Assembly (NCBI GenBank): GCA_043813155.1
Contig: JBDRLK010000353.1
Coordinates: forward strand, 1 to 33,377
Origin: Pseudomonadota bacterium
Lineage (GTDB): Bacteria; Myxococcota_A; Polyangia; DRWM01
Length of the DNA: 33,377 nucleotides
Reading direction: 5' to 3'
Shown here: piece after piece, positions 660 through 31,625 of the stretch
Layout: every line of letters begins with the position of its first letter
How positions within the stretch are numbered: position 1 is the stretch's first letter
The notes under the pieces: model-generated
Seen by the model: only the letters and a program-made list of their open reading frames with translations
Database searches by the model: none
Told to the model about the DNA's origin: nothing
Made by a program: the position numbers and the translations under genes

Positions 660-2408
660 TCAGTATTTGCGCTCCACGGGTTTCCACGTCGTTATGGTGA
701 CGGGCTTGCTGTCAAACCTGATGCCCTTCTCCTCGCGGAAGGCCAGGGTGTGCCTGAGCCACTTCTCGTCGTCCCTTTCCGGAAAATCCCTCCTGGCGTG
801 GCCGCCCCTGCTCTCCTCGCGCAGGATCGCGCCCTTGACCACGATCTCGGCGATCTCGAGCATGAAGTCGATCTCCAGGACATTCATGAGGTTCGTGTTG
901 TACACCCTTGACTTGTCCTTGACCGATATGTTCATGAACCTTCCCTGGAGCGCCTTGATTTTTTCGTCGGCCTGCTTCAGCTCCTCGCCGGTCCTGAACA
1001 CGCCCACGAGGCCGTCCATGGCCTCGCGCATTTCCCTGCGGATCATGTAGGGGTTCTCGTCGCCGTCCCGGCCGAGGATGTCGTCGTAGATCCTCTTTTT
1101 CTCATTCTCGATCATCGCAGCGGGAGCCTCGGGGATTTTCACCGTTTCGAGCGCGTACGTGGCGGTCTCAAGGCCCGTGATCATCCCCCATGCAAGGCAT
1201 TCGGCCGTGGAATTGGACCCCAGCCTGTTCGCGCCGTGCAGGCTCGAACACTGCGCTTCGCCGGCCGCCCAGATGCCCTTGACCGGGGTTTTCCCGTTGA
1301 TGTCCGTTTCGATGCCGCCCATCATGTAATGCTCGACCGGCCGCACGGGAATCGGCTCCTCGATGGGGTCGATGCCGTTGAACTTGATGCACACTTCCCT
1401 GATCAGCGGCAGCCGCTCGTTGATTTTTCCGGCGCCCAGGTGCCGCAGGTCCAGGTGCACGTAGTCCAGGCCCGCCGGCCCCTTGAAGCCGCGGCCCGCC
1501 TCGATCTCGGTCATTTCCGCCCTCGATATGATGTCCCTGGGCGCGAGCTCCATCTTCGAAGAGGCGTAGTTTTCCATGAAACGCTCGCCCTTGCTGTTGA
1601 GCAAGTGGCCGCCCTCGCCCCTGGTCGCTTCCGTGATCAGGATGCCCGACGGCACGAGACCGGTGGGGTGAAACTGGATGAACTCCATGTCCTCCAGCGC
1701 AATGCCGGCCCTGAAGGCCATGCCCAGCCCGTCGCCCGTGACCGAATGCGAGTAGGTCGTGAAACCGTAGATCCTCCCGCCGCCGCCGGTCGCCAGGATC
1801 AGCGCTTTTGCCCGAAACACGCAGAAGCGGCCCGTTGACATCTCGATGGCGCAGAGGCCGCGAAGCTCGCCGTCCTCCACGAGGATGGCCGTGGCGAAAT
1901 ACTCGTCGTAGCGGTGGATGTCCGGGTACTTGAGGATCGTGTCGTACAGGCACGACATCTCGAAAAACCCGGTCTTGTCCGCGGCGAACGTTGCCCTGGG
2001 ATAGGAATGGCCCCCGAAGGGCCGCTGGGCGATCCGGCCGTCCCCGGTCCTGGACCAGGGCAGGCCCCAGTGCTCGAGCTGCATGATTTCCCCGGGCATG
2101 GCCTCGACGAATTTTCTCACCACGTCCTGGTCGGCCAGAAAGTCAGATCCCTTGATCGTGTCCCATGCGTGAAGCTCGAAGGAGTCGCCCTGCTCCGGCC
2201 GCAGCATTGCGGCCGTGCCGCCTTCAGCCGCGACCGAGTGCGAGCGCATGAGCTGAAGCTTGGACACGATCCCGATCGAGAGCTTTCCCTCCGAGGTTTT
2301 CGCGGCCTCGATGCCCGCCCTCAGCCCCGCGAGGCCCGACCCGAGTATCAGGATATCATGCTCAATCGTTTCAACCATATCCTCTCCAAAAGCTTTGTGA
2401 TGTGTCAA
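660..2408 (-). CDS. sdhA: succinate dehydrogenase/fumarate reductase flavoprotein subunit
   Basis: 582 aa. N-terminal dinucleotide fold ILILGSGLAGLRAG, covalent-FAD histidine context RSHSVAAEGG, FHPTG, TEATRGEGG, and LAPRDIISRA catalytic-region motifs. Confidence 0.93.
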   Translation of the reverse strand: MTHHKAFGEDMVETIEHDILILGSGLAGLRAGIEAAKTSEGKLSIGIVSKLQLMRSHSVAAEGGTAAMLRPEQGDSFELHAWDTIKGSDFLADQDVVRKFVEAMPGEIMQLEHWGLPWSRTGDGRIAQRPFGGHSYPRATFAADKTGFFEMSCLYDTILKYPDIHRYDEYFATAILVEDGELRGLCAIEMSTGRFCVFRAKALILATGGGGRIYGFTTYSHSVTGDGLGMAFRAGIALEDMEFIQFHPTGLVPSGILITEATRGEGGHLLNSKGERFMENYASSKMELAPRDIISRAEMTEIEAGRGFKGPAGLDYVHLDLRHLGAGKINERLPLIREVCIKFNGIDPIEEPIPVRPVEHYMMGGIETDINGKTPVKGIWAAGEAQCSSLHGANRLGSNSTAECLAWGMITGLETATYALETVKIPEAPAAMIENEKKRIYDDILGRDGDENPYMIRREMREAMDGLVGVFRTGEELKQADEKIKALQGRFMNISVKDKSRVYNTNLMNVLEIDFMLEIAEIVVKGAILREESRGGHARRDFPERDDEKWLRHTLAFREEKGIRFDSKPVTITTWKPVERKY

Positions 2409-2547: not shown

Positions 2548-3051
2548 ATGGCAAAAAAAGAATTCAAGTTTGAAGAGAAATTCGACGTGCCCAGGGAAAA
2601 GCTCATTGAATTCATACTGGACACGGGGAACGCGGAGGCCCGCGCCGTCGAGTTCGGCAAAGCCCTGGAGGCGAAGGCGACCAGGGAGGATATCGGGGAC
2701 GGGAGGGCCAGGATCGTCGTGAGGTCCAAGGAGTACGGCCGCGGCATGGACGGCAGGAAGGACATGACCAAGACGCAGAGCTCCACGTTCATCGAGGAGT
2801 GGGACCTGGAGCGATACGAGGCAACCTGGTCCTACGCCATGGAGTCGACCTTCGCCGACAAGATCATGGTGGGAGGCAACAAGAAGCTCGTCGCCACGGG
2901 GGACGGCTCGTGCACCTACAAGGATGATGCCACGATAGAGGTCAAGATTCCCGTCATCGGCGGAATGATCGCGGGCAAGGTCGTTTCATCCATGGAGAGA
3001 AGCACGCCGCGCATGATGGAATGGATGAAGAACAAGCTGAATGAGCGCTAG
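2548..3051 (+). CDS. soluble 167-aa protein, possibly SRPBCC/START-like (DUF2505-like)
   Basis: ORF with GGAG 5 nt upstream of the ATG and coding-like composition. The fold assignment is only a loose resemblance to SRPBCC proteins and is not verified. Confidence 0.45.
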   Translation: MAKKEFKFEEKFDVPREKLIEFILDTGNAEARAVEFGKALEAKATREDIGDGRARIVVRSKEYGRGMDGRKDMTKTQSSTFIEEWDLERYEATWSYAMESTFADKIMVGGNKKLVATGDGSCTYKDDATIEVKIPVIGGMIAGKVVSSMERSTPRMMEWMKNKLNER

Positions 3052-3294: not shown

Positions 3295-3885
3295 ATGAGC
3301 GCCGGCGATGAGATCACCCATATCCTTTCGACGCCTCCCCCGAGGCCTTTGAAGGCCGTCACAAGGGGCCCGGCCTTCATAAAGGCGGTCGCCTACCTGG
3401 CCGTAGCCGTTGTTTCCATCATCGTCGGGCTCGTTGATCTGTGGTATTACCTGTTCGCCCATTACCGCGAGCCCATTCTGGGCAACGAGATTCTCATGCT
3501 TTCCTATATTGTTTTCATCCTGTCCATCGGCGGGTTTGTTTTCTTCTGGTCCACGAGCTTCATGAACATATACTCGATTTACCTGTTCAGGAAAGGAAAC
3601 CTCAGGCCCGCGCGGGTCGAGAAGGCCACCATGCAGGAAAAGTCCGGGCGGGCAATGTTTGTCGTGAACTGGGCTGTCGAGGAAGAAGGAAAGACAATCA
3701 AGGGCGCCATTTCGACTGCGGTCCCGGACATTGCGAATTTCCGGCAGGACGTGGCCGGGGGGGATACCATGTTCCTGCTCTCGTCGGGCAAAGATCTTGG
3801 AGACGCCATGCCCGTGGGGATGATGGGACTGAAGAGGACTGGCTGCTGTTCCCGTCGCTTGCCGTTCCTTTTCGCTTCAGCGTAA
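3295..3885 (+). CDS. hypothetical membrane protein (2 TM helices plus soluble C-terminal domain)
   Basis: 196 aa. Hydrophobic helices VAYLAVAVVSIIVGLVDLWYYLF and LMLSYIVFILSIGGFVFFW are followed by a charged soluble region. First ATG of the ORF, with a weak SD. Confidence 0.6.
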   Translation: MSAGDEITHILSTPPPRPLKAVTRGPAFIKAVAYLAVAVVSIIVGLVDLWYYLFAHYREPILGNEILMLSYIVFILSIGGFVFFWSTSFMNIYSIYLFRKGNLRPARVEKATMQEKSGRAMFVVNWAVEEEGKTIKGAISTAVPDIANFRQDVAGGDTMFLLSSGKDLGDAMPVGMMGLKRTGCCSRRLPFLFASA

Positions 3886-3935
3886 CGAGGGGGCTATCCA
3901 TTGCCTGGGCCCTGGTCTGCGCCTCCATTGCCGTG

Positions 3936-4382
3936 ATGGGCTTTACGAGCAGCCATTTCATCAATGAAAAGGTGCCCATGAAATTCGTCATTATTTCGTC
4001 CGGGGCGAGCCTGATTGCCGCCCTGGTGTTCTGGCTGGCGAGCAGGCGGGTCATGGCATGGTTCCGGCCCTCGTGGTACATGTGGACGGCGGGAATCTTT
4101 GTTTTCTCCTATTTCATGGTCCTTGGAGGGATCCGGGGACTGAACATGTGGCTGGACAAAGGCAAGCCGCACATTTATAAAACGCAGATCCTTCACCTGG
4201 ACGATTCTATTTTTCCCCAGCTTCAACGTTACGTGTACGTTCGCTCATGGAGGGAGGGCCGGGTAAAGGAAAAGATTCCCATATCCATGAGAACAGGGCA
4301 AGGCATGTCCCCCGGTGACGATGTTACGGTCGAAGTGCAGGACGGCTACTTCGACATGCCCGCAATAACCGGCCTGCGTTGA
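3936..4382 (+). CDS. hypothetical membrane protein (2 TM helices plus soluble C-terminal domain)
   Basis: Only the 3' part of ORF 3441..4382 looks coding (FVIISSGASLIAALVFWLA, WTAGIFVFSYFMVLGG, then a charged domain). ATG 3936 is the first ATG past the stop of the upstream gene. GTG 3933 is possible, so the start is uncertain. Confidence 0.5.
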   Translation: MGFTSSHFINEKVPMKFVIISSGASLIAALVFWLASRRVMAWFRPSWYMWTAGIFVFSYFMVLGGIRGLNMWLDKGKPHIYKTQILHLDDSIFPQLQRYVYVRSWREGRVKEKIPISMRTGQGMSPGDDVTVEVQDGYFDMPAITGLR

Positions 4383-4386
4383 AAAG

Positions 4387-4425
4387 GGCGCATGAAGAAA
4401 ACATGCGCACCGCAGCGCCGTTTTT
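4387..4425 (+). terminator. possible intrinsic terminator or protein-binding inverted repeat
   Basis: GCGCATG-N7-CATGCGC (4388..4394 / 4402..4408) is nested in GGCGC...GCGCC and followed by a T5 run at 4421..4425, just after the stop at 4382. Confidence 0.3.
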
Positions 4426-4517
4426 AGACGACAGGCGAGCCGGGAAGCTCACCCGGGTGCATGAAAACCGTATTCACCTGCTTGACCTGAAGCTGATTTT
4501 CCGGCCTGATTACGGAT

Positions 4518-4533
4518 TGGCATTAATTTTGCT
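4518..4533 (+). promoter_or_regulatory. sigma54-type (-24/-12) promoter
   Basis: TGGCAT-TAATT-TTGCT has GG-N10-GC spacing and matches the TGGCAC-N5-TTGCW consensus. It lies about 40 nt upstream of the ATG at 4572. Confidence 0.6.
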
Positions 4534-4571
4534 TTATCGCGAAGCGGAAAAACAGGGAGGACAGAACATCC

Positions 4572-5342
4572 ATGACCGTAAAAGGAGAAGTCCTTTTAAT
4601 TGACCGCGAGGACAGCGGGATCGAGGCGCATGCCGTTGCGCTGTCCAAAGCGGGGCACAGCGTGTCCTGCACGTTCAACGGCAAAGAGGCCATCAAGAAA
4701 CTATCCGAGCACACCGTCGACCTCGTTGTGTCGGACACCGGTCTGCCCGACACCGACGGCATCCTGCTCTTGAGATCGATCAAGGACATTTCAAAGGATA
4801 TATATGTTGTCCTGATGGGCGAATGGCCGACCATCGAATTCACGAAAACGGCCATGAGCATCGGGGCGTACGACGTGCTCTGCAAGCCCGTGGAGCCGGA
4901 AAAGCTGTGCAGGGTGGTGCAGTCCGTGATTGCCGCGCGCCGGTACCGGCTTTCACAGATTGCCCGGGACCCGGCAACGAGAGGCGAGAAGCCTTCGCCC
5001 GAATGCACCTATGACGACCAGGGGCTGTGGTCCCGCACGCTGCCTAATGGAACCGTTGAGATCGGAATGTCGGCGAGCGGCTGGGTGGCCAGCGGGAAAA
5101 TGGTGTACATCACGCTTCCCGAGGAAGGCGCGGTAGTAAAGGAATGCGATCTTCTTTTCGAGATTGTTTCGAGCTATGGAAAAATCGGACAGGTTCACAG
5201 GGTCCTGTCGCCTTTGAGCGGAACGGTGATCGAGGTGAACGAGAATTTCAATGCCGAGCTCGTCAGGGCTGTCTGCGACCCCTGCGGCGGCCGGTGCTGG
5301 CAGACCCCGATTTTGAAAATAACGGTGGGGGCCGGGCCTTGA
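4572..5342 (+). CDS. response-regulator receiver domain fused to a GcvH-like (lipoyl/hybrid-barrel) domain
   Basis: N-terminus: REC motifs LLIDRED, VVSD(55)TGLPDTDG and LCKP. C-terminus aligns with glycine-cleavage H protein (GTVEIGMS...VYITLPEEGAVV...SPLSGTVIEVNENFN), but the ESVKA lipoyl-lysine context is not conserved. SD GGGAGG lies upstream. Confidence 0.8.
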   Translation: MTVKGEVLLIDREDSGIEAHAVALSKAGHSVSCTFNGKEAIKKLSEHTVDLVVSDTGLPDTDGILLLRSIKDISKDIYVVLMGEWPTIEFTKTAMSIGAYDVLCKPVEPEKLCRVVQSVIAARRYRLSQIARDPATRGEKPSPECTYDDQGLWSRTLPNGTVEIGMSASGWVASGKMVYITLPEEGAVVKECDLLFEIVSSYGKIGQVHRVLSPLSGTVIEVNENFNAELVRAVCDPCGGRCWQTPILKITVGAGP

Positions 5343-5452
5343 ATCTTGAATTTTGACATGGTTTGTTATGAACTTTTTTCATAGCGGACTTTGAGGTATG
5401 AAAATAATTCATAGAAAATACACGGAAAATTCAAGATTCAAGGCCCGGCCCC
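5328..5452. repeat. 125-bp element bounded by a perfect 27-bp inverted repeat
   Basis: GGGGCCGGGCCTTGAATCTTGAATTTT (5328..5354) is the exact reverse complement of 5426..5452. The left arm overlaps the last codons and stop of the upstream CDS. The interior is AT-rich. Confidence 0.75.
5353..5413 (+). promoter_or_regulatory. candidate regulated promoter: TTGACA hexamer plus two TATGAA-N5-TTCATA palindromes
   Basis: TTGACA at 5353..5358. 17-bp palindromes TATGAActtttTTCATA (5367..5383) and TATGAAaataaTTCATA (5397..5413) have centres 30 bp apart. They lie 56-100 nt upstream of the REC-NuoE start. No convincing -10 was identified. Confidence 0.4.
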
Positions 5453-5468
5453 AACAAGGAGGTTTAAA

Positions 5469-6407
5469 ATGCAACCACAGGTACTAATCGTTGATGACCA
5501 GCTGTCAGTCGTCAAATCCTGGGAGGCCATCCTGTCGGAAACGGGCATTTCCGTCACCGGAACGCGGGATGGAAAGGAAGCCTGGCAGCAGTTCCAGAAA
5601 AAGAAGTTCGACGCGGTTATTACCGATATCAGGATGCCGGGCATGGACGGGATCGAGCTTTTGGAAAAGATCAAGAAAGCCGACAGGAAGGTCGAGGTCA
5701 TCGTGCTGACGGGCTACGGCTCAAAGGAGAATGTTACAAGGGCAACGGACCTTGGAGCCTACGATTTCATTTTAAAGCCTGTTTCACCGCGCGACATGGT
5801 CAACACGACCATCGGGGCGCTCGGCCGGAGGGGCTTTGAACGCAGCAGGTTCAAGCCCAGATGGCAGTGGCTCGTGCGGCCGGCCGACGTGGCCGCGAAA
5901 ATGAAGGCGGAGCTGGAGAAGGCCGAAAGCAGGCCCGCGCCTGAAATCCCGAAGGAGCACTTCGAGAAGCTCGATGAGATCATAGCAAAGTGGCGGGGCA
6001 AGCCTGGATGCCTGATCCCTGCGCTCCAGGAAGCCCAGGGCCTCATCGGGTATCTTCCGCCTGAAATCCAGAAGATCATCGCGGCGGGTCTCGATCTGCC
6101 GGCCAGCGAGGTGTTCAGCGTGGTGACCTTCTATGCCTTCTTCACCCTGAAGCCGCGAGGCAAGTTCAACATCAGGGTGTGTCTCGGCACGGCGTGCTAC
6201 GTGAAGGGAGGCAGAGATATCGTGGGCAAGATAAGAGAGGGCATGGGCATCGGCATCGGTGACATTACCGACGACATGAAATTCTCCCTCGAGGCCGTCC
6301 GGTGCCTCGGCGCCTGCGGCCTTGCGCCTACCCTGACCGTGGGCCAGGACGTTCACGGCAGGATCAACCCGGCCAAGACCATGGAGATATTCAAGCAGTA
6401 TGAGTAA
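5469..6407 (+). CDS. response-regulator receiver domain fused to NuoE/HydC-type thioredoxin-like [2Fe-2S] subunit
   Basis: REC: LIVDD(9,10), VITD(53)IRMPGMDG, VLTGYG, ILKP. C-terminal half: NuoE motifs IPALQEAQ, CLGTAC (Cx4C) and CLGACGLAP (Cx3C). SD AAGGAGG lies upstream. Confidence 0.9.
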   Translation: MQPQVLIVDDQLSVVKSWEAILSETGISVTGTRDGKEAWQQFQKKKFDAVITDIRMPGMDGIELLEKIKKADRKVEVIVLTGYGSKENVTRATDLGAYDFILKPVSPRDMVNTTIGALGRRGFERSRFKPRWQWLVRPADVAAKMKAELEKAESRPAPEIPKEHFEKLDEIIAKWRGKPGCLIPALQEAQGLIGYLPPEIQKIIAAGLDLPASEVFSVVTFYAFFTLKPRGKFNIRVCLGTACYVKGGRDIVGKIREGMGIGIGDITDDMKFSLEAVRCLGACGLAPTLTVGQDVHGRINPAKTMEIFKQYE

Positions 6408-6455: not shown

Positions 6456-6842
6456 ATGAAACTCAAAGACGTGATCGCGGAAATCGAGGGGAAAATGCTG
6501 TGCGGCGAGGAGCTGCTTTCTGCAGACATCGAGACGGTCATGGCATCGGACATGATGAGCGATGTCCTGAGGTACTCGAAACCGGGCTCCATTCTCGTCA
6601 CGGGCAACAAGAACGTCCAGGCCGTGCGAACCGTGCTCATCGCGGAGCTGCGCGGCGCGATCCTGATCAGGAACAAGGCCCCGGCAAGGGAAATCCTGGA
6701 GCTTGCGCAGGAGAACGGGATTTTCATCGCCCTGACCGGGCTGGACATGTTCGAGGTGTGCGGCAGGCTGTACGAGAGAATGAAAGCAGCGCCGCCGCAA
6801 ACAAAAAAGGAGGATCAATCCGGCAGCAGGGCGGAAGTGTAG
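6456..6842 (+). CDS. DRTGG domain protein (copy 1)
   Basis: 128 aa and a clear paralog of 8654..9004 (shared ASDMMSDV, GRLY). This is the architecture of small DRTGG proteins found next to hydrogenase-like sensor genes. SD AGGAGG. Confidence 0.75.
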   Translation: MKLKDVIAEIEGKMLCGEELLSADIETVMASDMMSDVLRYSKPGSILVTGNKNVQAVRTVLIAELRGAILIRNKAPAREILELAQENGIFIALTGLDMFEVCGRLYERMKAAPPQTKKEDQSGSRAEV

Positions 6843-6861
6843 AGGGGGGCCGGGCGCTGCG

Positions 6862-7398
6862 ATGAGGGATATTTACGTATTCGAACAGAAGTTTCCGATA
6901 ACGGGCGGAGATTTTACCAATGCGGGCATGGCGTCCGTGGAGGTGAAATCCATACTGAAAAAAACGGGAATCGATTCGAAGAATGTCAGGAGGATATCCA
7001 TCGCGGTCTATGAAGCGGAGATGAACGTCGTTCTGTACTCACGGCAAGGAGTGCTGACGCTGCTCGTGACGCCGGAGAGCGTTTTCATTGTTTTCCAGGA
7101 CGAGGGGGAGGGCATCGAGGATATCGCCATGGCCATGAGAGAGGGCTTTACCACGTCGGACGAGAAAATACGGGAGCTGGGCTTCGGAAGCGGCATGGGG
7201 CTTCCCAACATCAAGGGGAATGCCGACTACTTGAAAATCACCTCCACCATGAAGAAAGGAACGACGCTGGAGATGGGGTTCGACCTGACGGGGAGGATTT
7301 CGGAGTCCGATAAAGAGGAGACCAGGACGAGGTACGACATGGAAAACGATATCAACATGTATCTTTGGAAAAAGAAGGGGTACGTAGAGAAGACATGA
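6862..7398 (+). CDS. anti-sigma-factor-like Ser/Thr protein kinase (RsbW/SpoIIAB-type GHKL ATPase)
   Basis: 178 aa. Bergerat-fold boxes EAEMNVV (N), DEGEGI (G1) and GFGSGMGL (G2). No DHp/H-box. Confidence 0.75.
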   Translation: MRDIYVFEQKFPITGGDFTNAGMASVEVKSILKKTGIDSKNVRRISIAVYEAEMNVVLYSRQGVLTLLVTPESVFIVFQDEGEGIEDIAMAMREGFTTSDEKIRELGFGSGMGLPNIKGNADYLKITSTMKKGTTLEMGFDLTGRISESDKEETRTRYDMENDINMYLWKKKGYVEKT

Positions 7399-8657
7399 TC
7401 TCATTGCGAATAGACGCTGACAAGTGCAACGGGTGCGTGAAGTGCATGCACGCCTGCCCCACCAGGGCGTTGAGGGTGAGAGATGGAACAGCGGTTATTC
7501 TGGACGATTATTGCATCGACTGCGGCGAGTGCGTCACGGCGTGCGAGAAGAACGCGATCGTTCCCCTCATCGATACGTTCGAGGACTTTTTTCAGAAGTT
7601 CAAGTTCAAGATCGCGCTGCCGTCCCCCGTGCTGTATTCCCAGTTCGGCGGCACTGTTCAGCCCAACGACATTCTCGCGGCCATACGAAGCCTGGGTTTC
7701 GGCTGCGTCGTGGACGAGGCCTACATCTGCGAGATGGTCAGCTCCGTGATCAAGCACTACGCGGACAAGAACAAGTCCGGCTTCCCCTATATTTCGTCGA
7801 TGTGCCCCGTTGTCACGCGGCTGATCCAGATGAGATTTCACGACCTGATCCACGCCATCATCCCGCTCCAGTCCCCGAGGGAGATCACGGCCCAGGAGCT
7901 CAAGCGAAAGTACTCGAAAAAGCTGGGCCTTCCGGAAGAGGACATAGGCGTGCTCTACATAACGCCCTGCTCGGCGAAGATCAACGCGATCAAGGACCCG
8001 CCTGCGAGGAAGAAGTCCACCATCGACGCCGCCATGGCGATCAAGGACATGTACATGCGGATCGCCAACAAGCTGTTCACGATCAGGGACAGTATCACTG
8101 AAGATGACGAGATGTACATGAGGGCGAGCGGGCTCGGCATCAGCTGGGGCATGGTAGGAGGGGAGATAGCCAATTTCGACCACAGCGAGTGCATCGCGGT
8201 TTCCGGCATAAGGGACGTCATCAAGATCCTCGAGGACATAGACAGGGGAAGGTTTTCCAACCTGCGCTACCTGGAATTGAGGGCATGCAGGGAAGGGTGC
8301 CTGGGCGGCAACCTGAACGTGGAGGACCGCTACGTGGCGAGAATGAACCTGATACGGCTGGTGGACATGTTCGGCAGTACTCCCAAGTTCGACAGGGAAA
8401 AGCTGATGCGGACCCACCAGAGCTACTTCTCCTTTGAAAAAGAGCCTTCTCCCATCAGGGAGACCGAGGCTCCCCTCAACCGCAGGAGGGACACGGCCAT
8501 TGAAATGCTCAACAGGGTCATCGAGATCCACGGCAGCCTGAAACAGATCGACTGCGGGGCCTGCGGCTCGCCGGACTGCGCGACATTCGCGGAAGACGTT
8601 GTCCGGGAATACTCCACGCTGGACCAGTGTGTTTTCATCGGGAGGGACAAGAAATGA
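7395..8657 (+). CDS. [FeFe]-hydrogenase-like protein, sensory (HydS-like) type without PAS domain
   Basis: N-terminal 2x[4Fe-4S] ferredoxin motifs CNGCVKCMHACP and CIDCGECVTACE. H-domain motifs SSMCP (for TSCCP), TPCSAK (for MPCxxK) and ELRACREGCLGG (for ExMxCxxGCxxG). C-terminal CGACGSPDC-x16-C. The start was chosen at the ATGA overlap with the upstream stop. ATG 7365 is an alternative. Confidence 0.85.
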   Translation: MISLRIDADKCNGCVKCMHACPTRALRVRDGTAVILDDYCIDCGECVTACEKNAIVPLIDTFEDFFQKFKFKIALPSPVLYSQFGGTVQPNDILAAIRSLGFGCVVDEAYICEMVSSVIKHYADKNKSGFPYISSMCPVVTRLIQMRFHDLIHAIIPLQSPREITAQELKRKYSKKLGLPEEDIGVLYITPCSAKINAIKDPPARKKSTIDAAMAIKDMYMRIANKLFTIRDSITEDDEMYMRASGLGISWGMVGGEIANFDHSECIAVSGIRDVIKILEDIDRGRFSNLRYLELRACREGCLGGNLNVEDRYVARMNLIRLVDMFGSTPKFDREKLMRTHQSYFSFEKEPSPIRETEAPLNRRRDTAIEMLNRVIEIHGSLKQIDCGACGSPDCATFAEDVVREYSTLDQCVFIGRDKK

Positions 8658-9004
8658 AACTTCGTGAAATAATTGAAAAGCTTGATTTCAAGGTGGTCAA
8701 CGAATCCGACAACATGGACGTGAACATCAGGCGCGGGTATGCAAGCGACATGCTCAGCGATGTCATTGCCAACGTCGGGGCCGATGATGTCTGGATCACC
8801 ATCCAGGCCCACCAGAACATCGTGGCCGTGGCCGTGCTCAAGGGAGTCGCGGCGATCATCATAGCGAACAAGAGGAATATCAACCAGGAAACGATCGCAA
8901 AGGCTAAGAGTGAAAACGTGGCCCTCATGCTCAGCGAGTTGCCGGTTTTCGAGATCGCTGGAAGGCTGTACGACATGGGGATCAGGGGGATCACGGAGCA
9001 ATGA
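8654..9004 (+). CDS. DRTGG domain protein (copy 2)
   Basis: 116 aa from ATG 8654 (ATGA overlap with the upstream stop). Paralog of 6456..6842. Confidence 0.75.
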   Translation: MKLREIIEKLDFKVVNESDNMDVNIRRGYASDMLSDVIANVGADDVWITIQAHQNIVAVAVLKGVAAIIIANKRNINQETIAKAKSENVALMLSELPVFEIAGRLYDMGIRGITEQ

Positions 9005-9777
9005 GCGCATTGCGGGAGTTCAGGGCGGACCTGCACGTCCATTCCTGCCTCTCGCCCTGTGCGGACATATTCATGACGCCCGCGAGGATAGCGAAGCGCG
9101 CCCGGGAGGCCGGATTGGACATGGTCGCCATCTGCGACCACAATTCCGCGGAGAACGCTCCCTACGGCGTGAAGGCCTGCGAGAGGTTGGAAGGGCTGAG
9201 CTTCCTGCCCGGCCTGGAAATCACGTCGGTGGAGGAAGTTCACGTCGTGGCGCTTTTCGCAGGCATCGCTGGCGCGCTGAAAATGCAGCGGGTTGTTTAC
9301 GACAAGCTGACGAAGGCGCCCAACGACAGCGACATGTACGGCGACCAGATCATCGTAAACGAGGACGACGAGGTGGAGGGCTTCAACGGCAGGTTGCTGA
9401 TCGGCTCCGTGGACATTGATTTGAAATCCCTGGTGGATCAGATTCACCGGCTGGACGGCATCGCCATTGCCGCGCACATAGACAAGACGTCGTTCGGGGT
9501 CGTGGGCCAGCTCGGGTTTATCCCCGAGGACGTTGACTTCGACGCTGTCGAGCTGTCCAGGTACGTGACGGACCGCAGCGAGGACTGGGAGCGGGAGGCG
9601 CAGAACAATTATTTCATGGGCCGCAGGTTTCCGATCCTGTTTTCCTCGGACGCCCACAGGCTCGAGGAAGTGGGAAAGCGAAGAACGATGTTTTTACTGA
9701 AATCGCCCGGGTTCGAGGAAATCAGGATGGCGCTCAAGGAGGTCGGCGGAAGAAAAGTACAGGCCCGGGAGACCTGA
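9001..9777 (+). CDS. PHP-family phosphoesterase
   Basis: 258 aa. PHP metal-ligand motifs DLHVHS, CDHNS, GLEITS, AAHIDK and SSDAH. ATGA overlap with the upstream gene. Confidence 0.85.
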   Translation: MSALREFRADLHVHSCLSPCADIFMTPARIAKRAREAGLDMVAICDHNSAENAPYGVKACERLEGLSFLPGLEITSVEEVHVVALFAGIAGALKMQRVVYDKLTKAPNDSDMYGDQIIVNEDDEVEGFNGRLLIGSVDIDLKSLVDQIHRLDGIAIAAHIDKTSFGVVGQLGFIPEDVDFDAVELSRYVTDRSEDWEREAQNNYFMGRRFPILFSSDAHRLEEVGKRRTMFLLKSPGFEEIRMALKEVGGRKVQARET

Positions 9778-9791
9778 AGGCTTCCGGCTCA

Positions 9792-9847
9792 GGGGCAGGG
9801 GAGGCTTTAGCCTCCCGGTTCAAGGGTAGGGGAGGCTTTAGCCTCCC
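9792..9847. repeat. two tandem REP-like hairpins
   Basis: GGGGAGGC-TTTA-GCCTCCC at 9798..9816 and again at 9829..9847 (the second preceded by GGGTA). Confidence 0.75.
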
Positions 9848-9864
9848 GTAAACAAAAAAGTCAA

Positions 9865-10416
9865 ATGGAAGATCTGTCGCTGCACATACTCGATATCATG
9901 CAGAATTCCGCGGAGCATGGCGCGGACACAATCGTTCTGCGAATCGAGGAGAACGCGGGCGACGACTTGCTCACGATCTCGATCCTGGACAATGGATCGG
10001 GAATGGACGAGAGCGCGGCGGCCAGGGTGACCGACCCGTTCTACACGTCCAAGGACAAGAGGGTCGGGCTCGGCGTCCCCCTGTTCAAGCAGGCGGCGCT
10101 GGCCGCGGGAGGCAGCTTCTCGATCGACTCGCAGGCCGGGAAGGGAACCGTGATCGAGGCGAGCTTCGACTATTCGAACATAGACCGCCAGCCCCTGGGC
10201 AATGTGGTGGACACGGTGATTTCCATACTCATCGCCTATCCCCATCTGCGGATTGTCTATACCCATGTGAAGGACGGGCAGGAGGCGGCCTTTGATTCCG
10301 AAGATTTCATGGAGCGCGCGGCAACGGCCGAGGGCGGGACCGCGGAGTACGCCGTGCTCTCCCTGATGAAAGGGGAATGGGAAAGCAGGCTCGGCGAAAT
10401 AGGCGCCGGCGAATAA
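9865..10416 (+). CDS. stand-alone GHKL (histidine-kinase-like) ATPase domain protein
   Basis: 183 aa. ILDIMQNSAEHGA (N box), LDNGSGMDE (G1), RVGLGVPLF (G2). No DHp/H-box or sensor domain. This resembles the small ATPase found between nuoE- and nuoF-like genes of bifurcating hydrogenase operons. Confidence 0.75.
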   Translation: MEDLSLHILDIMQNSAEHGADTIVLRIEENAGDDLLTISILDNGSGMDESAAARVTDPFYTSKDKRVGLGVPLFKQAALAAGGSFSIDSQAGKGTVIEASFDYSNIDRQPLGNVVDTVISILIAYPHLRIVYTHVKDGQEAAFDSEDFMERAATAEGGTAEYAVLSLMKGEWESRLGEIGAGE

Positions 10417-10428
10417 TGCCCCGCCGGG

Positions 10429-10480
10429 CAGGGGAGCCTTCAGGCTCCCCTGCTTCGGGAGGCTAAAGCCTCCCCTACCC
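10429..10480. repeat. REP-like hairpin pair
   Basis: CAGGGGAGCC-TTCA-GGCTCCCCTG (10429..10452) and GGGAGG-CTAAAG-CCTCCC (10457..10474, the inverted orientation of the CTTTAG type), followed by CTACCC. Confidence 0.75.
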
Positions 10481-10511
10481 CCAAGGGGCTATAAACCACG
10501 GAGGACCAATA

Positions 10512-10898
10512 ATGGCGAAATTGAAGATTGACGACCTCGACAGGATCAAGAAAAAAATGAAGGGTCAGATCCAGATCAGGGAGGGTGAGCACAGGGTGAA
10601 ATTGACCATCCACATGGGAACCTGCGGCATTGCCGCGGGCGCGCGCCCCCTCATGACGAGGATGCTCAAGGAGCTTTCAGACCGCAACATCACCGATGTT
10701 CGCCTCACGAGCTCGGGGTGCGCGGGGCTGTGCAGCCAGGAGCCCATGGCCACGGTCGAGATCAAGGGAGAGGCGCCGGTGAAGTACATCTCCCTCGACG
10801 AGGATAAAATGGTGGAAATCCTGGAGAAGCATGTTATCGGCGGCCGGATCGTGGAAAAGCACATGCTGGCCATGGGCAGCGAAAAAGTCCACGTGTAA
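10512..10898 (+). CDS. small thioredoxin-like [2Fe-2S] ferredoxin-domain protein
   Basis: 128 aa. HMGTCGIAAGA and SSGCAGLCSQEP motifs typical of the Trx-like ferredoxins encoded in HydABC-type operons. Only three Cys are present (C38, C70, C74). Confidence 0.8.
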   Translation: MAKLKIDDLDRIKKKMKGQIQIREGEHRVKLTIHMGTCGIAAGARPLMTRMLKELSDRNITDVRLTSSGCAGLCSQEPMATVEIKGEAPVKYISLDEDKMVEILEKHVIGGRIVEKHMLAMGSEKVHV

Positions 10899-10915
10899 CT
10901 TATATCTTGAATGGT

Positions 10916-11167
10916 GTGCGGGGCTTTAGCCCCGCCGAAGCGGCCCTGAAGGGCCGCACTGCGGAACGGAATGTTGGTGTGCGGGGCTTTAGCCCCGCCG
11001 AAGCGGCCCAGAAGGGCCGCACTGCGGAACGGAATGTTGTAGTGCGGGGCTTTAGCCCCGCCGAAGCGGCCCAGAAGGGCCGCACTACGGAACGGAATGG
11101 TGTAGTGCGGGGCTTTAGCCCCGCCGAAGCGGCCCTGAAGGGCCGCACTACGGCACCGAATTTAGTG
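10916..11167. repeat. 4 x 63-bp tandem repeat, each unit a double hairpin
   Basis: Units start at 10916, 10979, 11042 and 11105. Each carries GCGGGGC-TTTA-GCCCCGC and GCGGCCC-TGAA-GGGCCGC within GTGCGG...CCGCAC. A few substitutions separate the units. Confidence 0.9.
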
Positions 11168-11197
11168 AAGAGCCAGCATTTCAAGGAGGACCAGAAA

Positions 11198-14100
11198 ATG
11201 CCGGAAGCAAAGTACAGGATAGAATGTCTCGTATGCGCGGGAACCAGCTGCGTCGCCGGGGGCTCGTTCGAGCTGAAAGGGGTGCTCGAAGAGTCGATCA
11301 AAAAATTCGAGCTCCGGGACGAGGTGAGGGTCACCACGACGGGGTGCAACGGGTTCTGCGCCGCGGGCCCGATCATCAGGGTCATGCCCGACGACGTGTT
11401 TTACCAGTTCGTCACCCCCGGGGACGTGGACAAGTTCGTGGAGGAGCATTTCATCAAGGGCAGGGTTTACAAGCCGCTGCTCTACGAGGAGGACGAGACC
11501 AGGCAGAAAGTCCCGATCATGAGCGACATCGGGTTCTTCAAGCACCAGACGCTGATCGTTCTTCGCAACAGGGGGCTGATCGATCCGGAGGTCATCGACG
11601 AATATATCGGCAGGGACGGGTACAGGGCCGTGGCCAAGGCGCTCACGCAGATGACGCCCGAGGACATCAGGGCGGAGATGAAGAAATCCGGCCTCAGGGG
11701 AAGGGGAGGAGCCGGCTTCCCCACGGCGCTGAAGTGGGAGTTCTGCGCCAAGGCGCAGGGCGATATCAAGTACATGCTCTGCAACGCGGACGAGGGAGAC
11801 CCCGGCGCGTTCATGGACCGCAGCGTGCTGGAAAGCGACCCCCACGCCGTTCTCGAGGGAATGACCATCGGCGCAAAGGCCATCGGCTCTTCGGAGGGCT
11901 ACATCTACGTGAGGGCGGAGTACCCGCTCGCGATCAAGAGGCTGCAGATCGCCATCAGGCAGGCGCTGGATTACGGCCTGCTCGGCGACAACATCCTGGA
12001 CACGGGCTTCAACTTCCACCTCGACCTGTACTTCGGCGCCGGCGCTTTTGTCTGCGGCGAGGAGACGGCCCTCATGCGCTCCATCGAGGGCAAGCGGGGA
12101 ACGCCGCGGCCCAGGCCGCCCTTCCCGGCGCACAAGGGGTTGTGGGACAGGCCGTCCGTCCTCAACAACGTGGAAACGCTGGCCAACGTCCCGCAGATCA
12201 TTCAGAACGGCGGTGACTGGTACGCGAGCCTTGGGACCGAGCGAAGCAAGGGCACCAAGGTCTTCGCCCTGTCGGGCGCGGTCCAGAACATCGGCCTGGT
12301 GGAAATCCCCATGGGCGCGTCCATACGCACGCTGGTCTATGACATCGGCGGCGGCGCCAAGGCGGGCAAGCAGGTCAAGGCCATCCAGATGGGCGGGCCG
12401 TCGGGCGGGTGCATTCCCGAGAAAATATTCGACACGCAGATCGACTACGAGGAGATACAGAAGACCGGAGCCATCATGGGCTCGGGCGGCGTGGTGGTCA
12501 TGGACGACACCACCTGCATGGTCGACCTGGCCAGGTTTTTCCTTGACTTCACTTCCGAGGAGTCCTGCGGCAAGTGCGTGCCCTGCAGGATCGGGACCAA
12601 GGTCATGCTCGATGTGCTGGACAAGATCATCGCGGGCAACGGCGAGATGGAAGACCTCGACAAGCTGGAAGACCTTGGCAGGGACATTGCCGCGGCAAGC
12701 CTTTGCGGCCTTGGCCAGACGGCGCCCAATCCCGTCCTTTCCACGCTCAGGTACTACAGGCACGAATACGAGGCCCACGTCAAGGAGCAGTACTGCCCGG
12801 CGGGCAAGTGCAAGCGCCTGTCGCCCACGCCTTGCCAGGCCGCCTGCCCCATCGGGTCGGACATCTCGAGCTACGTGTCGCTCATCGGGCACGGGCGGTA
12901 CAATGACGCGCTGCAGGTCATTCTCGAGGATAACCCGCTGCCCGCGTCCCTGGGCAGGATCTGCGTTCACAAGTGCGAGGAAGGCTGCAGGCGGGCGGAG
13001 GTCGACACGCCCGTCTCCATCTGCGCCCTGAAGAGGGTCGCGGTGGACAAGGTTCCCGGCTACGTGGACGACGTCGAGCCCTGCGCCATAAGGTTCGACG
13101 AGAAAGTCGCCATCGTGGGCGCGGGCCCGGCGGGCGTCGCGGCGGCCTACGACCTGGTCCGCTACGGGTACGGCGTGACGATTTTCGACATGCTGAAGAA
13201 GGGCGGGGGCATGCTCAGGGCCGGGATTCCAGAATACAGGCTTCCGAGAAAGACCCTCGATGCCGAGCTGGGGAGGCTCGTGAAGATGGGCGTAAAATTC
13301 GAGTTCGGTAAAAAACTGGGCAAGGATTTTTCGCTGGGCAGCCTGCGCAAGCAGGGGTTCAAGGCGATCTTCATGGGCATCGGCGCCTACAAGGGAATGA
13401 AACTGCGGCTGGAGGGAGAGGACGAGGCCGGGGGGATTACGGACTGCATCGAGTTTCTCATGGAAAACAATCTCAAGGGCCACAAGAAGGCGGGCGACAA
13501 GGTGCTCGTCATCGGGGGCGGCAACGCGGCCATGGATGCCGCCCGCGTCTCCATACGCGTGGGCAGCGACGTGCGCCTGCTGTACCGCAGGACGCGCAAG
13601 GAGATGCCGGCGAACCCGGCCGAGATCGAGGCCGCCATCGAGGAAGGCGTGAACATGGAGCTGCTGGTGCAGCCCGTGGCGCTGCTCACGTCGAGCGGCA
13701 GGGTAAAGGGCCTCAAGTGCATCCGCAACGAGCTGGGCGAGCCGGACAAGAGCGGCAGGCGCAGGCCCGTGGCCATCGAGGGCAGCGAGTTCGACGTGGA
13801 GGCGGACGCCATCATCACGGCCATCGGGCAGTCTCCCGACCTGAGCTTCATCGGCAGCGGCTCGGGAGAGTTCGAGCTCAGCAGGTGGGGCACGATCAAG
13901 GTCGACCCCGATACCATGCAGACGAGCCAGAAGGACGTGTTCGCGGCCGGTGACGCGGTGACGGGCCCGGCCAGCGCCGTCGAAGCCATGGGAGGGGGAA
14001 GGCAGGCGGCTCACTCCATCCACTGCTTCCTGAGGGGCTTGCCCTTTGGCGTGTACAAGCATGCCAAGCCCATGAAGTTCCCGGAGCGTGTTCCGGTCAG

Positions 14101-14260
14101 GGAGGGAGAGCTCGACGGTCTCGAGAAGCCGAAGATGCCCCACATGTCCGTCGGGAAGAGGTGCAAGTGCTTCGACGAAGTGGAGCTCGGCCTGGATGAG
14201 AAAACCGCGATCATGGAAGCGAAACGGTGTCTTCGGTGCGATCTCCAGGCGGAGGAATAG
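11198..14260 (+). CDS. NuoF/HydB-type flavoprotein (N-terminal Trx-like 2Fe-2S, FMN/NADH site, 4Fe-4S) fused to a GltD-like NAD(P)H-dependent FAD oxidoreductase
   Basis: The start was chosen at an ATG 7 nt after AGGAGGA. Motifs: CLVCAGTSC...GCNGFCAAGP; GRGGAGFPT; CNADEGDPGAFMDR; ESCGKCVPCRIG...SLCGLGQ. Then the GltD part: CPAGKC...CQAACP...ICVHKCEEGC, VAIVGAGPAGVAAAYDL, VLVIGGGNAAMDAAR, LLYRRTRKEMPA. 1020 aa. Confidence 0.9.
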   Translation: MPEAKYRIECLVCAGTSCVAGGSFELKGVLEESIKKFELRDEVRVTTTGCNGFCAAGPIIRVMPDDVFYQFVTPGDVDKFVEEHFIKGRVYKPLLYEEDETRQKVPIMSDIGFFKHQTLIVLRNRGLIDPEVIDEYIGRDGYRAVAKALTQMTPEDIRAEMKKSGLRGRGGAGFPTALKWEFCAKAQGDIKYMLCNADEGDPGAFMDRSVLESDPHAVLEGMTIGAKAIGSSEGYIYVRAEYPLAIKRLQIAIRQALDYGLLGDNILDTGFNFHLDLYFGAGAFVCGEETALMRSIEGKRGTPRPRPPFPAHKGLWDRPSVLNNVETLANVPQIIQNGGDWYASLGTERSKGTKVFALSGAVQNIGLVEIPMGASIRTLVYDIGGGAKAGKQVKAIQMGGPSGGCIPEKIFDTQIDYEEIQKTGAIMGSGGVVVMDDTTCMVDLARFFLDFTSEESCGKCVPCRIGTKVMLDVLDKIIAGNGEMEDLDKLEDLGRDIAAASLCGLGQTAPNPVLSTLRYYRHEYEAHVKEQYCPAGKCKRLSPTPCQAACPIGSDISSYVSLIGHGRYNDALQVILEDNPLPASLGRICVHKCEEGCRRAEVDTPVSICALKRVAVDKVPGYVDDVEPCAIRFDEKVAIVGAGPAGVAAAYDLVRYGYGVTIFDMLKKGGGMLRAGIPEYRLPRKTLDAELGRLVKMGVKFEFGKKLGKDFSLGSLRKQGFKAIFMGIGAYKGMKLRLEGEDEAGGITDCIEFLMENNLKGHKKAGDKVLVIGGGNAAMDAARVSIRVGSDVRLLYRRTRKEMPANPAEIEAAIEEGVNMELLVQPVALLTSSGRVKGLKCIRNELGEPDKSGRRRPVAIEGSEFDVEADAIITAIGQSPDLSFIGSGSGEFELSRWGTIKVDPDTMQTSQKDVFAAGDAVTGPASAVEAMGGGRQAAHSIHCFLRGLPFGVYKHAKPMKFPERVPVREGELDGLEKPKMPHMSVGKRCKCFDEVELGLDEKTAIMEAKRCLRCDLQAEE

Positions 14261-18426: not shown

Positions 18427-18572
18427 CAATTTCAATGACAAGCACACCTGTCCCGGGTCCGGGGGACACGCTTTCTGCAGGAACCCCATTAAAGAGCCGA
18501 ACCTTTTTCCTGTTGTCAGCGATAGGCTTGATGCTGTATGGTATTAGAAGGCAATGTAAAAGGGGAGAGCCC

Positions 18573-20153: not shown

Positions 20154-20227
20154 TTTTCTGTTGCAAAGATAGTGCAAAGCACTTAGCATATGAGTGCAGG
20201 CGGAAAAAATCAGCTCGAGGAATAATA

Positions 20228-31234: not shown

Positions 31235-31625
31235 CGATTTTCTCCCTAATAAAATCAACGATATCTTCAATCGAGCTTCCCACCGGGAAAATGCCTTCAA
31301 TGCCCGTTTCCCTGAGCTTCTCGATGTCCTCCTGCGGAATCACGCCGCCGACCAGCAGGGACGCGGAGTCGAGCTTCCTTTTCTTCATCTCATCCCTGAC
31401 CTTTTTCGACAGCGTGAGGTGGGCCCCGCTCATGATGCTCAAACCCACGATGTCAACGCCTTCCTGCATGGCGGTTTCGGCTATTTCTTCCGGCGTCCGG
31501 TGCAGGCCCGTGTAAATAACCTCCATGCCCGCGTCCCTGAGCGCCAGGCACAGGACTTTCGCGCCCCTGTCATGGCCGTCGAGGCCCGGCTTGGCGATCA
31601 GGACTCTTATCTTTTTTTCATTCAT
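31227..31625 (-). CDS. acyl-CoA mutase small subunit, cobalamin-binding domain
   Basis: 132 aa. B12-binding DxHxxG motif ([11 protein letters not shown]), SIMSG and [18 protein letters not shown]. Confidence 0.92.

Follow-up and report, generated by a model that had tools for sequence, protein, structure and literature searches.

The 33,377-nucleotide (nt) contig JBDRLK010000353.1 of assembly GCA_043813155.1 (Pseudomonadota bacterium, placed in the Myxococcota_A, Polyangia, by GTDB) was analyzed over its entire length, which is referred to below as the window. Towards its left end lies a region that is, judging from its sequence, a sigma-54-dependent promoter with predicted dependence on RpoN, which opens a long gene cluster on the plus strand; coordinates refer to this strand unless stated otherwise. 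The first gene of the cluster encodes REC-GcvH, a fusion of a response regulator receiver (REC) domain to a domain resembling GcvH, the H protein of the glycine cleavage system. The best explanation, held with moderate confidence, is that the cluster is a sigma-54-driven operon in which REC-GcvH acts as a regulatory or adaptor subunit of a REC-NuoE/NuoF-GltD/NuoG-like complex.

The REC-GcvH gene (4572-5342) is the only long open reading frame (ORF) with a good start at that place and encodes 256 amino acids (aa) plus a stop codon, starting from the ATG at 4572. The start codon is preceded by a ribosome-binding site, AGGGAGGA (4554-4561), a purine-rich block that is conserved in an alignment of five related loci. 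Fifteen other distinct sequences, 50-86% identical to the window protein, make up a clade of 16 together with it; they come from metagenomes and from one NCBI genome assembled from a metagenome. Pairwise ratios of nonsynonymous to synonymous substitution rates (dN/dS) against the window gene were 0.14-0.33 in the five comparisons with an estimable dS. The ORF is therefore a real, constrained gene, and since these values lie far under 1, a decaying gene is ruled out. In the two closest comparisons, dN/dS was 0.12-0.18 for the GcvH-like half, versus 0.38-0.47 for the receiver, which makes the GcvH-like domain the most constrained part of the protein.

An AlphaFold model of REC-GcvH was made from a 111-row alignment of receiver-GcvH relatives, trimmed NtrC-type receivers and stand-alone GcvH-like proteins, and has a mean predicted local distance difference test score (pLDDT) of 88.4 and a predicted template modeling score (pTM) of 0.67. 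It replaced an earlier, unusable model from seven close homologues with a pLDDT of 42. The modeled protein consists of a (beta/alpha)5 receiver at residues 5-104, a 23-residue alpha-5 helix (109-131), a low-confidence linker and a beta-barrel (145-251).

The identity of the C-terminal barrel as a GcvH-like barrel-sandwich domain (residues 145-251; 5004-5324) is supported by three kinds of comparison. The Pfam GCV_H model (PF01597) matches residues 147-228 with an E value of 1.7e-9 and 38.1 bits, above its cutoff of 22.2, and covers profile positions 3-80 of 122. A search of the Protein Data Bank (PDB) with a profile of the C-terminal part, built from seven homologues, returned the GcvH structures 2ka7, 1zko, 3a7a, 3a8i, 3ift and 3hgb at E values of 1e-7 to 1e-6, including a value of 1.5e-7, with 2ka7 and 1zko at about 1e-7. 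Finally, Foldseek matched the modeled domain to the GcvH proteins of E. coli and M. tuberculosis (3a8k_E, 3a8i_E and 3hgb) with target-normalized TM-scores of 0.66-0.70 and a root-mean-square deviation (rmsd) of about 3 Å over 111 columns. A preliminary description, made from the sequence alone, had proposed a near-consensus sigma-54 element ahead of a 256-aa protein with an N-terminal receiver and a GcvH-like C-terminus. All of these elements were borne out, the last by the agreement of Pfam, PDB profile and fold comparisons.

The proposed promoter, TGGCAT-TAATT-TTGCT (TGGCATTAATTTTGCT, 4518-4533), ends 39 nt ahead of the ATG, differs from the TGGCAC-N5-TTGCW consensus at one position and keeps the canonical spacing between GG (4519-4520) and GC (4531-4532) of the -24 and -12 elements. 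Transcription is predicted to start at about 4543. By itself, the element is not above chance, as two matches to the consensus with at most one mismatch are found in the window against 0.87 expected. What makes it convincing is its conservation. It was compared across 11 related loci (the window, L106, L010, L012, L013, L014, L011, L102, L103, L104 and L105), which amount to ten distinct ones, as L012 and L013 are identical in both the gene and its upstream region. The pattern TGGCA[CT]-N5-TTG[CA] was found 30-61 nt 5' of the start codon in all 11 loci, and in the five-locus intergenic alignment the TGGCA and TTTGC columns are invariant, against a mean column identity of 54% in the flanking DNA.

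Two further boxes are found upstream of the promoter. The proximal box, TGCATGAAAACCGTATTCA (TGCAT-N9-ATTCA, 4458-4476), is located 60 nt upstream of the -24 element. Boxes of the form TGCAT-N9-AT(T/G)C(A/G) were detected by the scan in seven loci, at 57-60 nt upstream of this element in six of them and at 82 nt in L010; the conserved columns in the five-locus alignment are GGTG.AT and AT.C. The distal box, GCGCATG-N7-CATGCGC (4388-4408), contains a GCAT-N9-ATGC palindrome about 130 nt upstream of the -24 element and is a putative activator site. Its GCATG and ATGC columns are invariant in the five-locus promoter alignment, and equivalent palindromes are present in L010, L102, L105, L011, L012, L014 and L106. 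The two boxes are as expected for NtrC-family activator binding sites and are putatively assigned as such.

The sigma-54 reading thus rests on phylogenetic footprinting, on the two conserved upstream boxes, and on the presence in L011, L103 and L104 of a gene for an NtrC-type activator, with REC-AAA+(Sigma54_activat)-HTH_8 architecture, immediately upstream of the REC-GcvH gene. In L011, the activator gene is itself preceded by that of a Cache-HAMP-HisKA-HATPase kinase. Scanning the large window ORFs with Pfam and searching with the L011 activator by tblastn brought up receiver similarity only and no activator (AAA+) gene, in line with the initial statement that the window carries no enhancer-binding protein gene. 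A sigma-70 promoter was ruled out, as no sigma-70-like site was detected at 4200-5700. The second sigma-54-like match in the window, TTGCACTATCTTTGCA (20162-20177, minus strand), lies just past the 3' end of a PAS-GGDEF gene (18435-20153). Lacking the GG and situated at a gene end, it was rejected as a promoter and is probably a chance match.

REC-GcvH was described from the outset as lying directly upstream of REC-NuoE, and this is the case: the REC-NuoE gene (5469-6407), which encodes a HydC/StnA-like [2Fe-2S] subunit with a canonical receiver, is the next gene and probably part of the same operon. Further downstream are a NuoF-GltD fusion (10907-14260) and a NuoG/FdhA-like molybdopterin protein (14365-16959). 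For the NuoF part, matches to HydB, NfnB and StnB, the B subunits of bifurcating enzymes, have E values of 1e-195 to 1e-230, and the C-terminal half of the fusion matches the GltD-like part of StnC and NfnA. The 14365-16959 protein is closest to FdsA, StnC and NuoG, and NuoG models outscore formate dehydrogenase models in NCBIfam. Together, these downstream genes resemble, at the sequence level, a Bfu-family (HydABC/NfnABC/StnABC-like) NAD(P)H-linked oxidoreductase, which may be either a transhydrogenase or a formate dehydrogenase.

The modules of Bfu-family bifurcating enzymes have been described together with the structure of StnABC (PMC10482914). In common with HydABC, NfnABC and StnABC, the window has a NuoE/HydC-like subunit, a HydB/StnB-like subunit, a GltD-like NADPH module and a NuoG/FdhF-like subunit. 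In StnC, however, GltD is fused to the NuoG-like subunit, whereas in the window (10907-14260) it is fused to the C-terminus of the HydB/StnB-like B subunit. Like this fusion, the receiver on the NuoE-like subunit and the REC-GcvH gene ahead of the operon are features without counterpart in the StnABC structure paper (PMC10482914).

REC-NuoE also follows REC-GcvH directly in L010 (with a 1-nt gap), L011, L012 and L105, and in L013 an end-truncated ORF is found in its position. In L105, on a 229-kb contig and at 50% identity, the operon consists only of REC-GcvH, REC-NuoE, NuoF-GltD and the NuoG-like gene. Since the operon can be reduced to these four, they appear to be the core, and the sensor and kinase genes that the window carries in addition an optional insert. 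When the species-representative genomes were queried with REC-NuoE, no locus matched both halves, the search being swamped by receiver matches. From these comparisons, the REC-NuoE fusion looks to be as rare as REC-GcvH and to accompany it always.

The REC-GcvH receiver (residues 5-131, including the long alpha-5 linker helix at 109-131; 4584-4964) was identified by Pfam, in the AlphaFold model and by Foldseek. Response_reg (PF00072) matches residues 7-116 with an E value of 2.5e-19 and 69.9 bits, above the cutoff of 30.2. The model has the five beta-alpha units of a receiver, with target-normalized TM-scores to isolated receivers of 0.86-0.95. The best Foldseek matches, at 31-33% identity, are structures of the Aquifex aeolicus NtrC1 receiver (4l4u, 1zy2 and 1ny5). 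REC-GcvH shares with such NtrC1/DctD-type receivers the long alpha-5 helix, which in NtrC1 forms a dimerizing linker; the rmsd is 1.2-1.3 Å for the isolated receiver 1zy2 and 4.4-4.7 Å for the longer constructs. Unlike NtrC1, REC-GcvH has no AAA+ or DNA-binding domain but a GcvH-like barrel after the linker, and it differs at R/K12, G83 and V102.

These differences concern the phosphorylation site. Residue equivalences to CheY were taken from alignments to NtrC1 and to canonical REC-GcvH relatives. All 16 clade sequences have the first acidic pocket residue (D11, CheY D12), the phospho-acceptor (D55, CheY D57) and the conserved lysine (K105, CheY K109). The second acidic, Mg-binding residue, D13 in CheY, is replaced by R12 in the window protein and by Lys in other members (R/K in 16/16). 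The conserved Thr/Ser, T87 in CheY, is G83 throughout the clade (16/16), and the aromatic switch, Y106 in CheY, is V102 (16/16). The pocket thus reads D11-R12-E13, and its early designation as a non-canonical acidic pocket was correct. In the same account, a Met was placed at the Thr/Ser position; the lack of a hydroxyl residue stands, but the position itself belongs to G83, and M82 is the hydrophobic beta-4 residue that precedes it, with no hydroxyl at either place.

The acidic Mg2+-binding pair is thus incomplete, and Thr/Ser and the aromatic switch are missing, while the phospho-acceptor and the conserved Lys are present. With the pair reduced to its first Asp and neither Thr nor aromatic switch left, the clade receiver is probably not an ordinary phospho-switch. 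The adjacent REC-NuoE receiver is canonical (VDDQ, TD, LTG and F-I-L-K-P). According to a preprint (bioRxiv 10.1101/781468), a well-known CheY variant that is constitutively active has, among its changes, Lys in place of D13 (D13K). The basic residue at position 12 and the loss of both members of the Thr and aromatic switch pair liken the clade receiver to CheY D13K(-Y106W) and to atypical (pseudo-)receivers, which suggests by analogy that it may signal without normal phosphorylation. Unlike in CheY D13K, this state is natural, conserved and found in a two-domain protein.

An exhaustive search of 1.84 billion cluster representatives with a C-terminal profile hidden Markov model (HMM) returned 108 proteins at E <= 1e-3. 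The best non-self matches were not canonical GcvH but proteins of about 250 aa with the domain at their C-terminus. In Pfam, both Response_reg and GCV_H score in twelve representatives of 50%-identity clusters, one of them a REC-GcvH-[4Fe-4S]-dicluster fusion; a thirteenth, which is truncated, has a weak receiver match only. With at least 13 such clusters besides its own, the fusion is a coherent, rare family and not a one-off. The nearest GcvH-like domains outside the clade are those of other REC fusions and of P0010, and canonical GcvH is more distant. P0010 is a protein of 1391 aa with three tandem GcvH-like domains, a GlcD-like FAD-oxidase, a 4Fe-4S dicluster and two CCG domains.

When the window protein or the clade alignment was run against species-representative genomes, unrelated receivers but no orthologue came up, and a word-indexed profile search with a diverse alignment was swamped by NtrC-type receivers. 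A pattern search of the same genomes for one REC-GcvH subfamily gave nine loci in several phyla. The only family name given by a source is an automatic one from the Joint Genome Institute (JGI), and no paper describing the REC-GcvH architecture was found in the literature searched (full text). That the architecture was not recognized as a described one therefore stands for this literature, although it is not unique to the locus but belongs to a small, widely scattered family.

Genomic context is described for the species-representative and related loci; the representatives of the distant clusters are on contigs too short to provide it. L113 has a succession of genes for a Cache-HAMP kinase, a sigma-54 activator, REC-GcvH, a REC-GcvH-HdrC-like fusion, an HdrB-like (CCG) protein and a 1499-aa GltD-HdrA-like protein, with TGGCAC-N5-TTGCT 39 nt ahead of the REC-GcvH start codon. 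The corresponding region of L109, on a "Deltaproteobacteria" chromosome, has a HAMP kinase, an activator, REC-GcvH, REC-STAS, another REC-GcvH, REC-GcvH-HdrC-like, HdrB-like and a giant GltD-HdrA-like protein. It thus has three REC-GcvH paralogues in total, with consensus sigma-54 motifs before both stand-alone genes. Across these regions (L113, 7126-15187; L109, 8001-17252), the REC-GcvH-HdrC-like fusions are 442-450 aa long and the GltD-HdrA-like fusions at least 1276 and up to 1499 aa. L110 also has a consensus -24/-12 motif upstream of its REC-GcvH gene. In L111 (7851-13904), a Planctomycetota genome from a metagenome, REC-GcvH is followed by a REC-Pyr_redox_2/Pyr_redox_dim protein, a receiver-fused class-I pyridine-nucleotide-disulfide oxidoreductase of the lipoamide-dehydrogenase type, and by REC-Fer4_22, and further on by FAD/NAD-binding and hydrogenase small-subunit-like proteins. 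In L114, the REC-GcvH gene is flanked by those of a Cache kinase and an activator, and in L108 and L021 it adjoins a kinase or a further receiver, along with multiheme cytochromes.

The elements that recur among these loci are a kinase with a sigma-54 activator, REC-GcvH at the head of an operon, and receivers fused to the first redox subunit. A Pyr_redox_2/GltD-type flavoprotein is present in four of the six context types. Response regulators whose outputs do not bind DNA are well known, and so are GcvH-like proteins with roles other than glycine cleavage, such as LbpA (PMC6067878). GcvH is a protein that docks on others, namely the P, T and L proteins of glycine cleavage, of which the L protein is a Pyr_redox_2 flavoprotein.

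Under the favored explanation, a sensor kinase and an NtrC-type activator, whose genes are adjacent in related loci and outside the window here, would switch the operon on. The REC-GcvH product would then serve as a regulatory or adaptor subunit of the enzyme and not as a glycine-cleavage carrier. The clade receiver may use its alpha4-beta5-alpha5 face together with the linker helix for constitutive pairing, either with a second copy of itself or with the canonical REC-NuoE receiver. The GcvH-like domain is probably not lipoylated and may bind to a flavoprotein module, for example the GltD-like domain, in the way that GcvH docks on its partner enzymes, and a conserved CxPC loop may add a thiol redox input.

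A broader version of this idea takes in the other receiver fusions, and is put forward only tentatively. REC-GcvH together with REC-NuoE, REC-GcvH-HdrC, REC-Pyr_redox_2 and REC-Fer4_22 might constitute an unrecognized two-component layer, in which a single kinase would both induce the operon through the sigma-54 activator and switch the assembly or electron routing of Bfu- and Hdr-type complexes post-translationally. This would happen by REC-REC pairing, with the lysine-less GcvH-like barrel as a docking or thiol-relay module on a GltD-like NAD(P)H flavoprotein.

Several points weigh against the favored explanation or parts of it. The -12 element of L105, which is outside the five-locus alignment, is TTGAA and not TTGC. 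How far the operon extends was judged from the distances between genes and from the lack of convincing terminators. With D55 and K105 kept, some phosphorylation of the clade receiver may persist. Covalent modification of the GcvH-like domain is possible, as one lysine, K204, is nearly invariant and is placed at a hairpin tip in the model. The candidate docking partner is suggested by gene neighborhood only, and Pyr_redox_2 flavoproteins are common in redox operons. Lastly, L108, L021 and L114, in which REC-GcvH is accompanied by multiheme cytochromes or by nothing but signaling genes, fit a general signaling role better than that of a fixed enzyme subunit.

A first alternative is considered unlikely. 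Here, the induced REC-GcvH would be a phosphate sink or decoy that drains phosphoryl groups from the kinase or heterodimerizes with the receiver of the activator, damping its own expression, with the GcvH-like domain as a scaffold or ligand-sensing appendage. The receiver is indeed closest to those of NtrC-family activators, linker helix included, and the gene is found between or beside kinase and activator genes in L011, L103, L104, L113, L109 and L114. The canonical phospho-site is also kept in the receivers of distant REC-GcvH proteins. In the clade itself, however, a receiver with R/K12, G83 and V102 at three key positions would make for a poor phosphate sink, and the stronger constraint in the two closest comparisons falls on the GcvH-like half. 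Furthermore, REC-GcvH is tightly and conservedly linked to REC-NuoE, and the domain pair also occurs fused to HdrC-like proteins, both of which point to an enzyme and not to a transcription factor as the partner.

A second alternative, which is quite unlikely, concerns a clade-specific Cys-rich loop near the C-terminus of the GcvH-like domain, C235-D-P-C238-G-G-R-C242-W243 (5274-5300). C235 is invariant (16/16), C238 is found in 15/16 and C242 in 12/16 sequences, and every clade member has at least two cysteines in the C235-x-P-C238-xxx-C242-W loop. The CxPC(xxxC) loop could form a reversible disulfide or bind a metal or Fe-S center. The protein would then signal the redox state of the cell to the enzyme or the receiver network, whether or not it docks in the manner of GcvH. 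The genomic context, an operon for a low-potential redox enzyme, would suit such a thiol sensor. Yet the loop is not found in the distant REC-GcvH proteins that share the genomic logic, so that sensing by it would not be the core function of the family, and it is poorly modeled (pLDDT about 61).

The hairpin that carries the lipoyl-lysine in GcvH is altered in the clade. The canonical motif is (V/I)ES(V/T)K(A/S)xxD(V/I)Y(A/S)PxSG, whereas the clade has EIVSS(Y/E)GK(I/T/L/A)Gx(V/I/T)(H/D)(R/K)xxSPxxG. The ESVKA motif is missing, and the clade hairpin is four residues longer than that of canonical GcvH, in keeping with the early observation of a non-conserved lipoyl-lysine context and an insertion of roughly that length. 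In place of the motif there is an extended loop, S201-Y-G-K204-I-G206 (5172-5189, K204 codon at 5181-5183). Structure prediction, which had been proposed as a check for a lysine at the tip of the hairpin, does model K204 there, on a six-residue loop (201-206) between strands 194-200 and 207-212. The hairpin of distant REC-GcvH proteins exceeds the canonical one by a single residue, and neither its tip nor the adjoining positions carry a Lys. Given the absence of ESVKA, the longer hairpin and these lysine-less relatives, lipoylation of the GcvH-like domain is rated very unlikely on sequence grounds.

As a third alternative, REC-GcvH might still be a swinging-arm carrier, in which K204, lipoylated or acylated, would shuttle reducing equivalents, sulfur or an acyl group to the GltD- or NuoF-like flavoprotein, and the receiver would control access. 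All but one of the 16 distinct clade sequences have K204, and relatives of the domain are fused to or located beside HdrC-, HdrB- and CCG-type modules. The carrier would be an analog of the LbpA proteins, which are stand-alone and retain the lipoyl-lysine. According to PMC6067878, LbpA proteins are GcvH-like, bind lipoate and are essential partners of Hdr-like sulfur-oxidation complexes. REC-GcvH resembles them as a GcvH-like protein that is tied to a redox complex and not to glycine cleavage, and distant REC-GcvH proteins are found in Hdr-like operons or even fused to HdrC-like domains. Unlike LbpA, it lacks the lipoyl-lysine context and carries a receiver, and the window enzyme is Bfu-type, not Hdr-type, with no hdr genes in the window. 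Besides the altered hairpin and the lack of a tip lysine in the wider family, the carrier reading is opposed by the presence of Arg instead of K204 in one member, P0006, by the absence of a lipoate ligase or synthase among the window ORFs scanned, and by the modest confidence of the modeled loop (pLDDT about 73 only), for which the alignment was rich in canonical GcvH. It is regarded as highly improbable.

A true glycine-cleavage H protein was rejected, as REC-GcvH lacks the lysine motif and is not accompanied by partner genes: neither gcvP nor a gcvT-like gene is present among the window ORFs scanned, and the neighbors are Bfu-type redox genes. REC-GcvH does share the barrel-sandwich hybrid fold of GcvH (3a8i/3a8k, 3hgb and 2ka7) and the motifs (V/I)Y(I/V)xLP, SPxSGxVxEVN and GW. 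It differs from it in the absence of ESVKA and of gcvT/gcvP neighbors, in the four additional hairpin residues, in the fused receiver and in the added CxPC loop.

Between REC-NuoE and NuoF-GltD, the window has a block of genes (6456-10898) that is wholly missing from the otherwise syntenic L105 operon. It encodes a DRTGG protein (6456-6842), a SpoIIAB-like HATPase (6862-7398), a [FeFe]-hydrogenase-like sensory protein with Fe_hyd_lg_C, Fer4 and a C-terminal FeS domain (7365-8657), a PHP protein (9001-9777), an HATPase_c protein (9865-10416) and a small 2Fe-2S-like protein (10512-10898).

The junction between REC-GcvH and REC-NuoE is occupied by an unstranded insertion of about 125 bp (5328-5452), a palindrome whose 27-nt arms are perfect (extended arms 5310-5354 and 5426-5470) and which folds into an RNA hairpin of -76 kcal/mol (z -9.5). 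The last five codons of REC-GcvH (VGAGP) and its stop codon come from this palindrome. It is present in L106 and missing from the same junction in L010, and therefore looks like a recent insertion, similar to a miniature inverted-repeat transposable element (MITE); it is the only copy in the window. A structured RNA family was rejected, since the Rfam matches were sub-threshold plant microRNA hairpins, that is, generic hairpin matches. So was an intrinsic terminator after the palindrome, as there is no T-run and the terminator scan was at chance level.

The gene that precedes REC-GcvH in L010, L012, L105 and L106 encodes a conserved 362-aa membrane protein. In the window it is split (3295-4382), with a change of frame near 3816-3837 (tblastn frames 1 and 3), which would be explained by either an assembly error or a pseudogene. 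Its partner, a DUF2505 gene (2548-3051), is intact. A fumarate reductase/succinate dehydrogenase flavoprotein gene (660-2408, minus strand) is divergent from the operon, and this synteny is kept in L010 and L105. Towards the other end of the window is a methylmalonyl-CoA mutase gene (29618-31300, minus strand), the nearest named relatives of which, from metagenome-assembled genomes of Deltaproteobacteria, Myxococcota and Planctomycetota, are only 65-69% identical. The presence of these two genes suggests an organism with methylmalonyl-CoA pathway (propionate) metabolism.

In syntrophs, acetogens, sulfate reducers and other anaerobes, it is Bfu- and Hdr-type electron-bifurcating enzymes that determine the redox balance. 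To our knowledge, next to nothing has been learned about the control of the activity of these enzymes. The loci described here share a repeated genetic design, which consists of a sensor kinase, a sigma-54 activator and a response regulator with a lysine-less GcvH output, and in which the first enzyme subunit bears a receiver. Both the combination of a receiver with a lysine-less GcvH-like output and its pairing with receiver-tagged bifurcating-type subunits are undescribed in the literature searched. REC-GcvH would represent a second use of the GcvH fold outside glycine cleavage, after LbpA, apparently without lipoate, and, if the proposed role is true, it would add a new output domain to the response-regulator repertoire. 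The locus hints at direct two-component control of electron-bifurcation-type redox enzymes, and would, if this is true, offer an entry point to the signal-dependent post-translational control of bifurcating-type enzymes.

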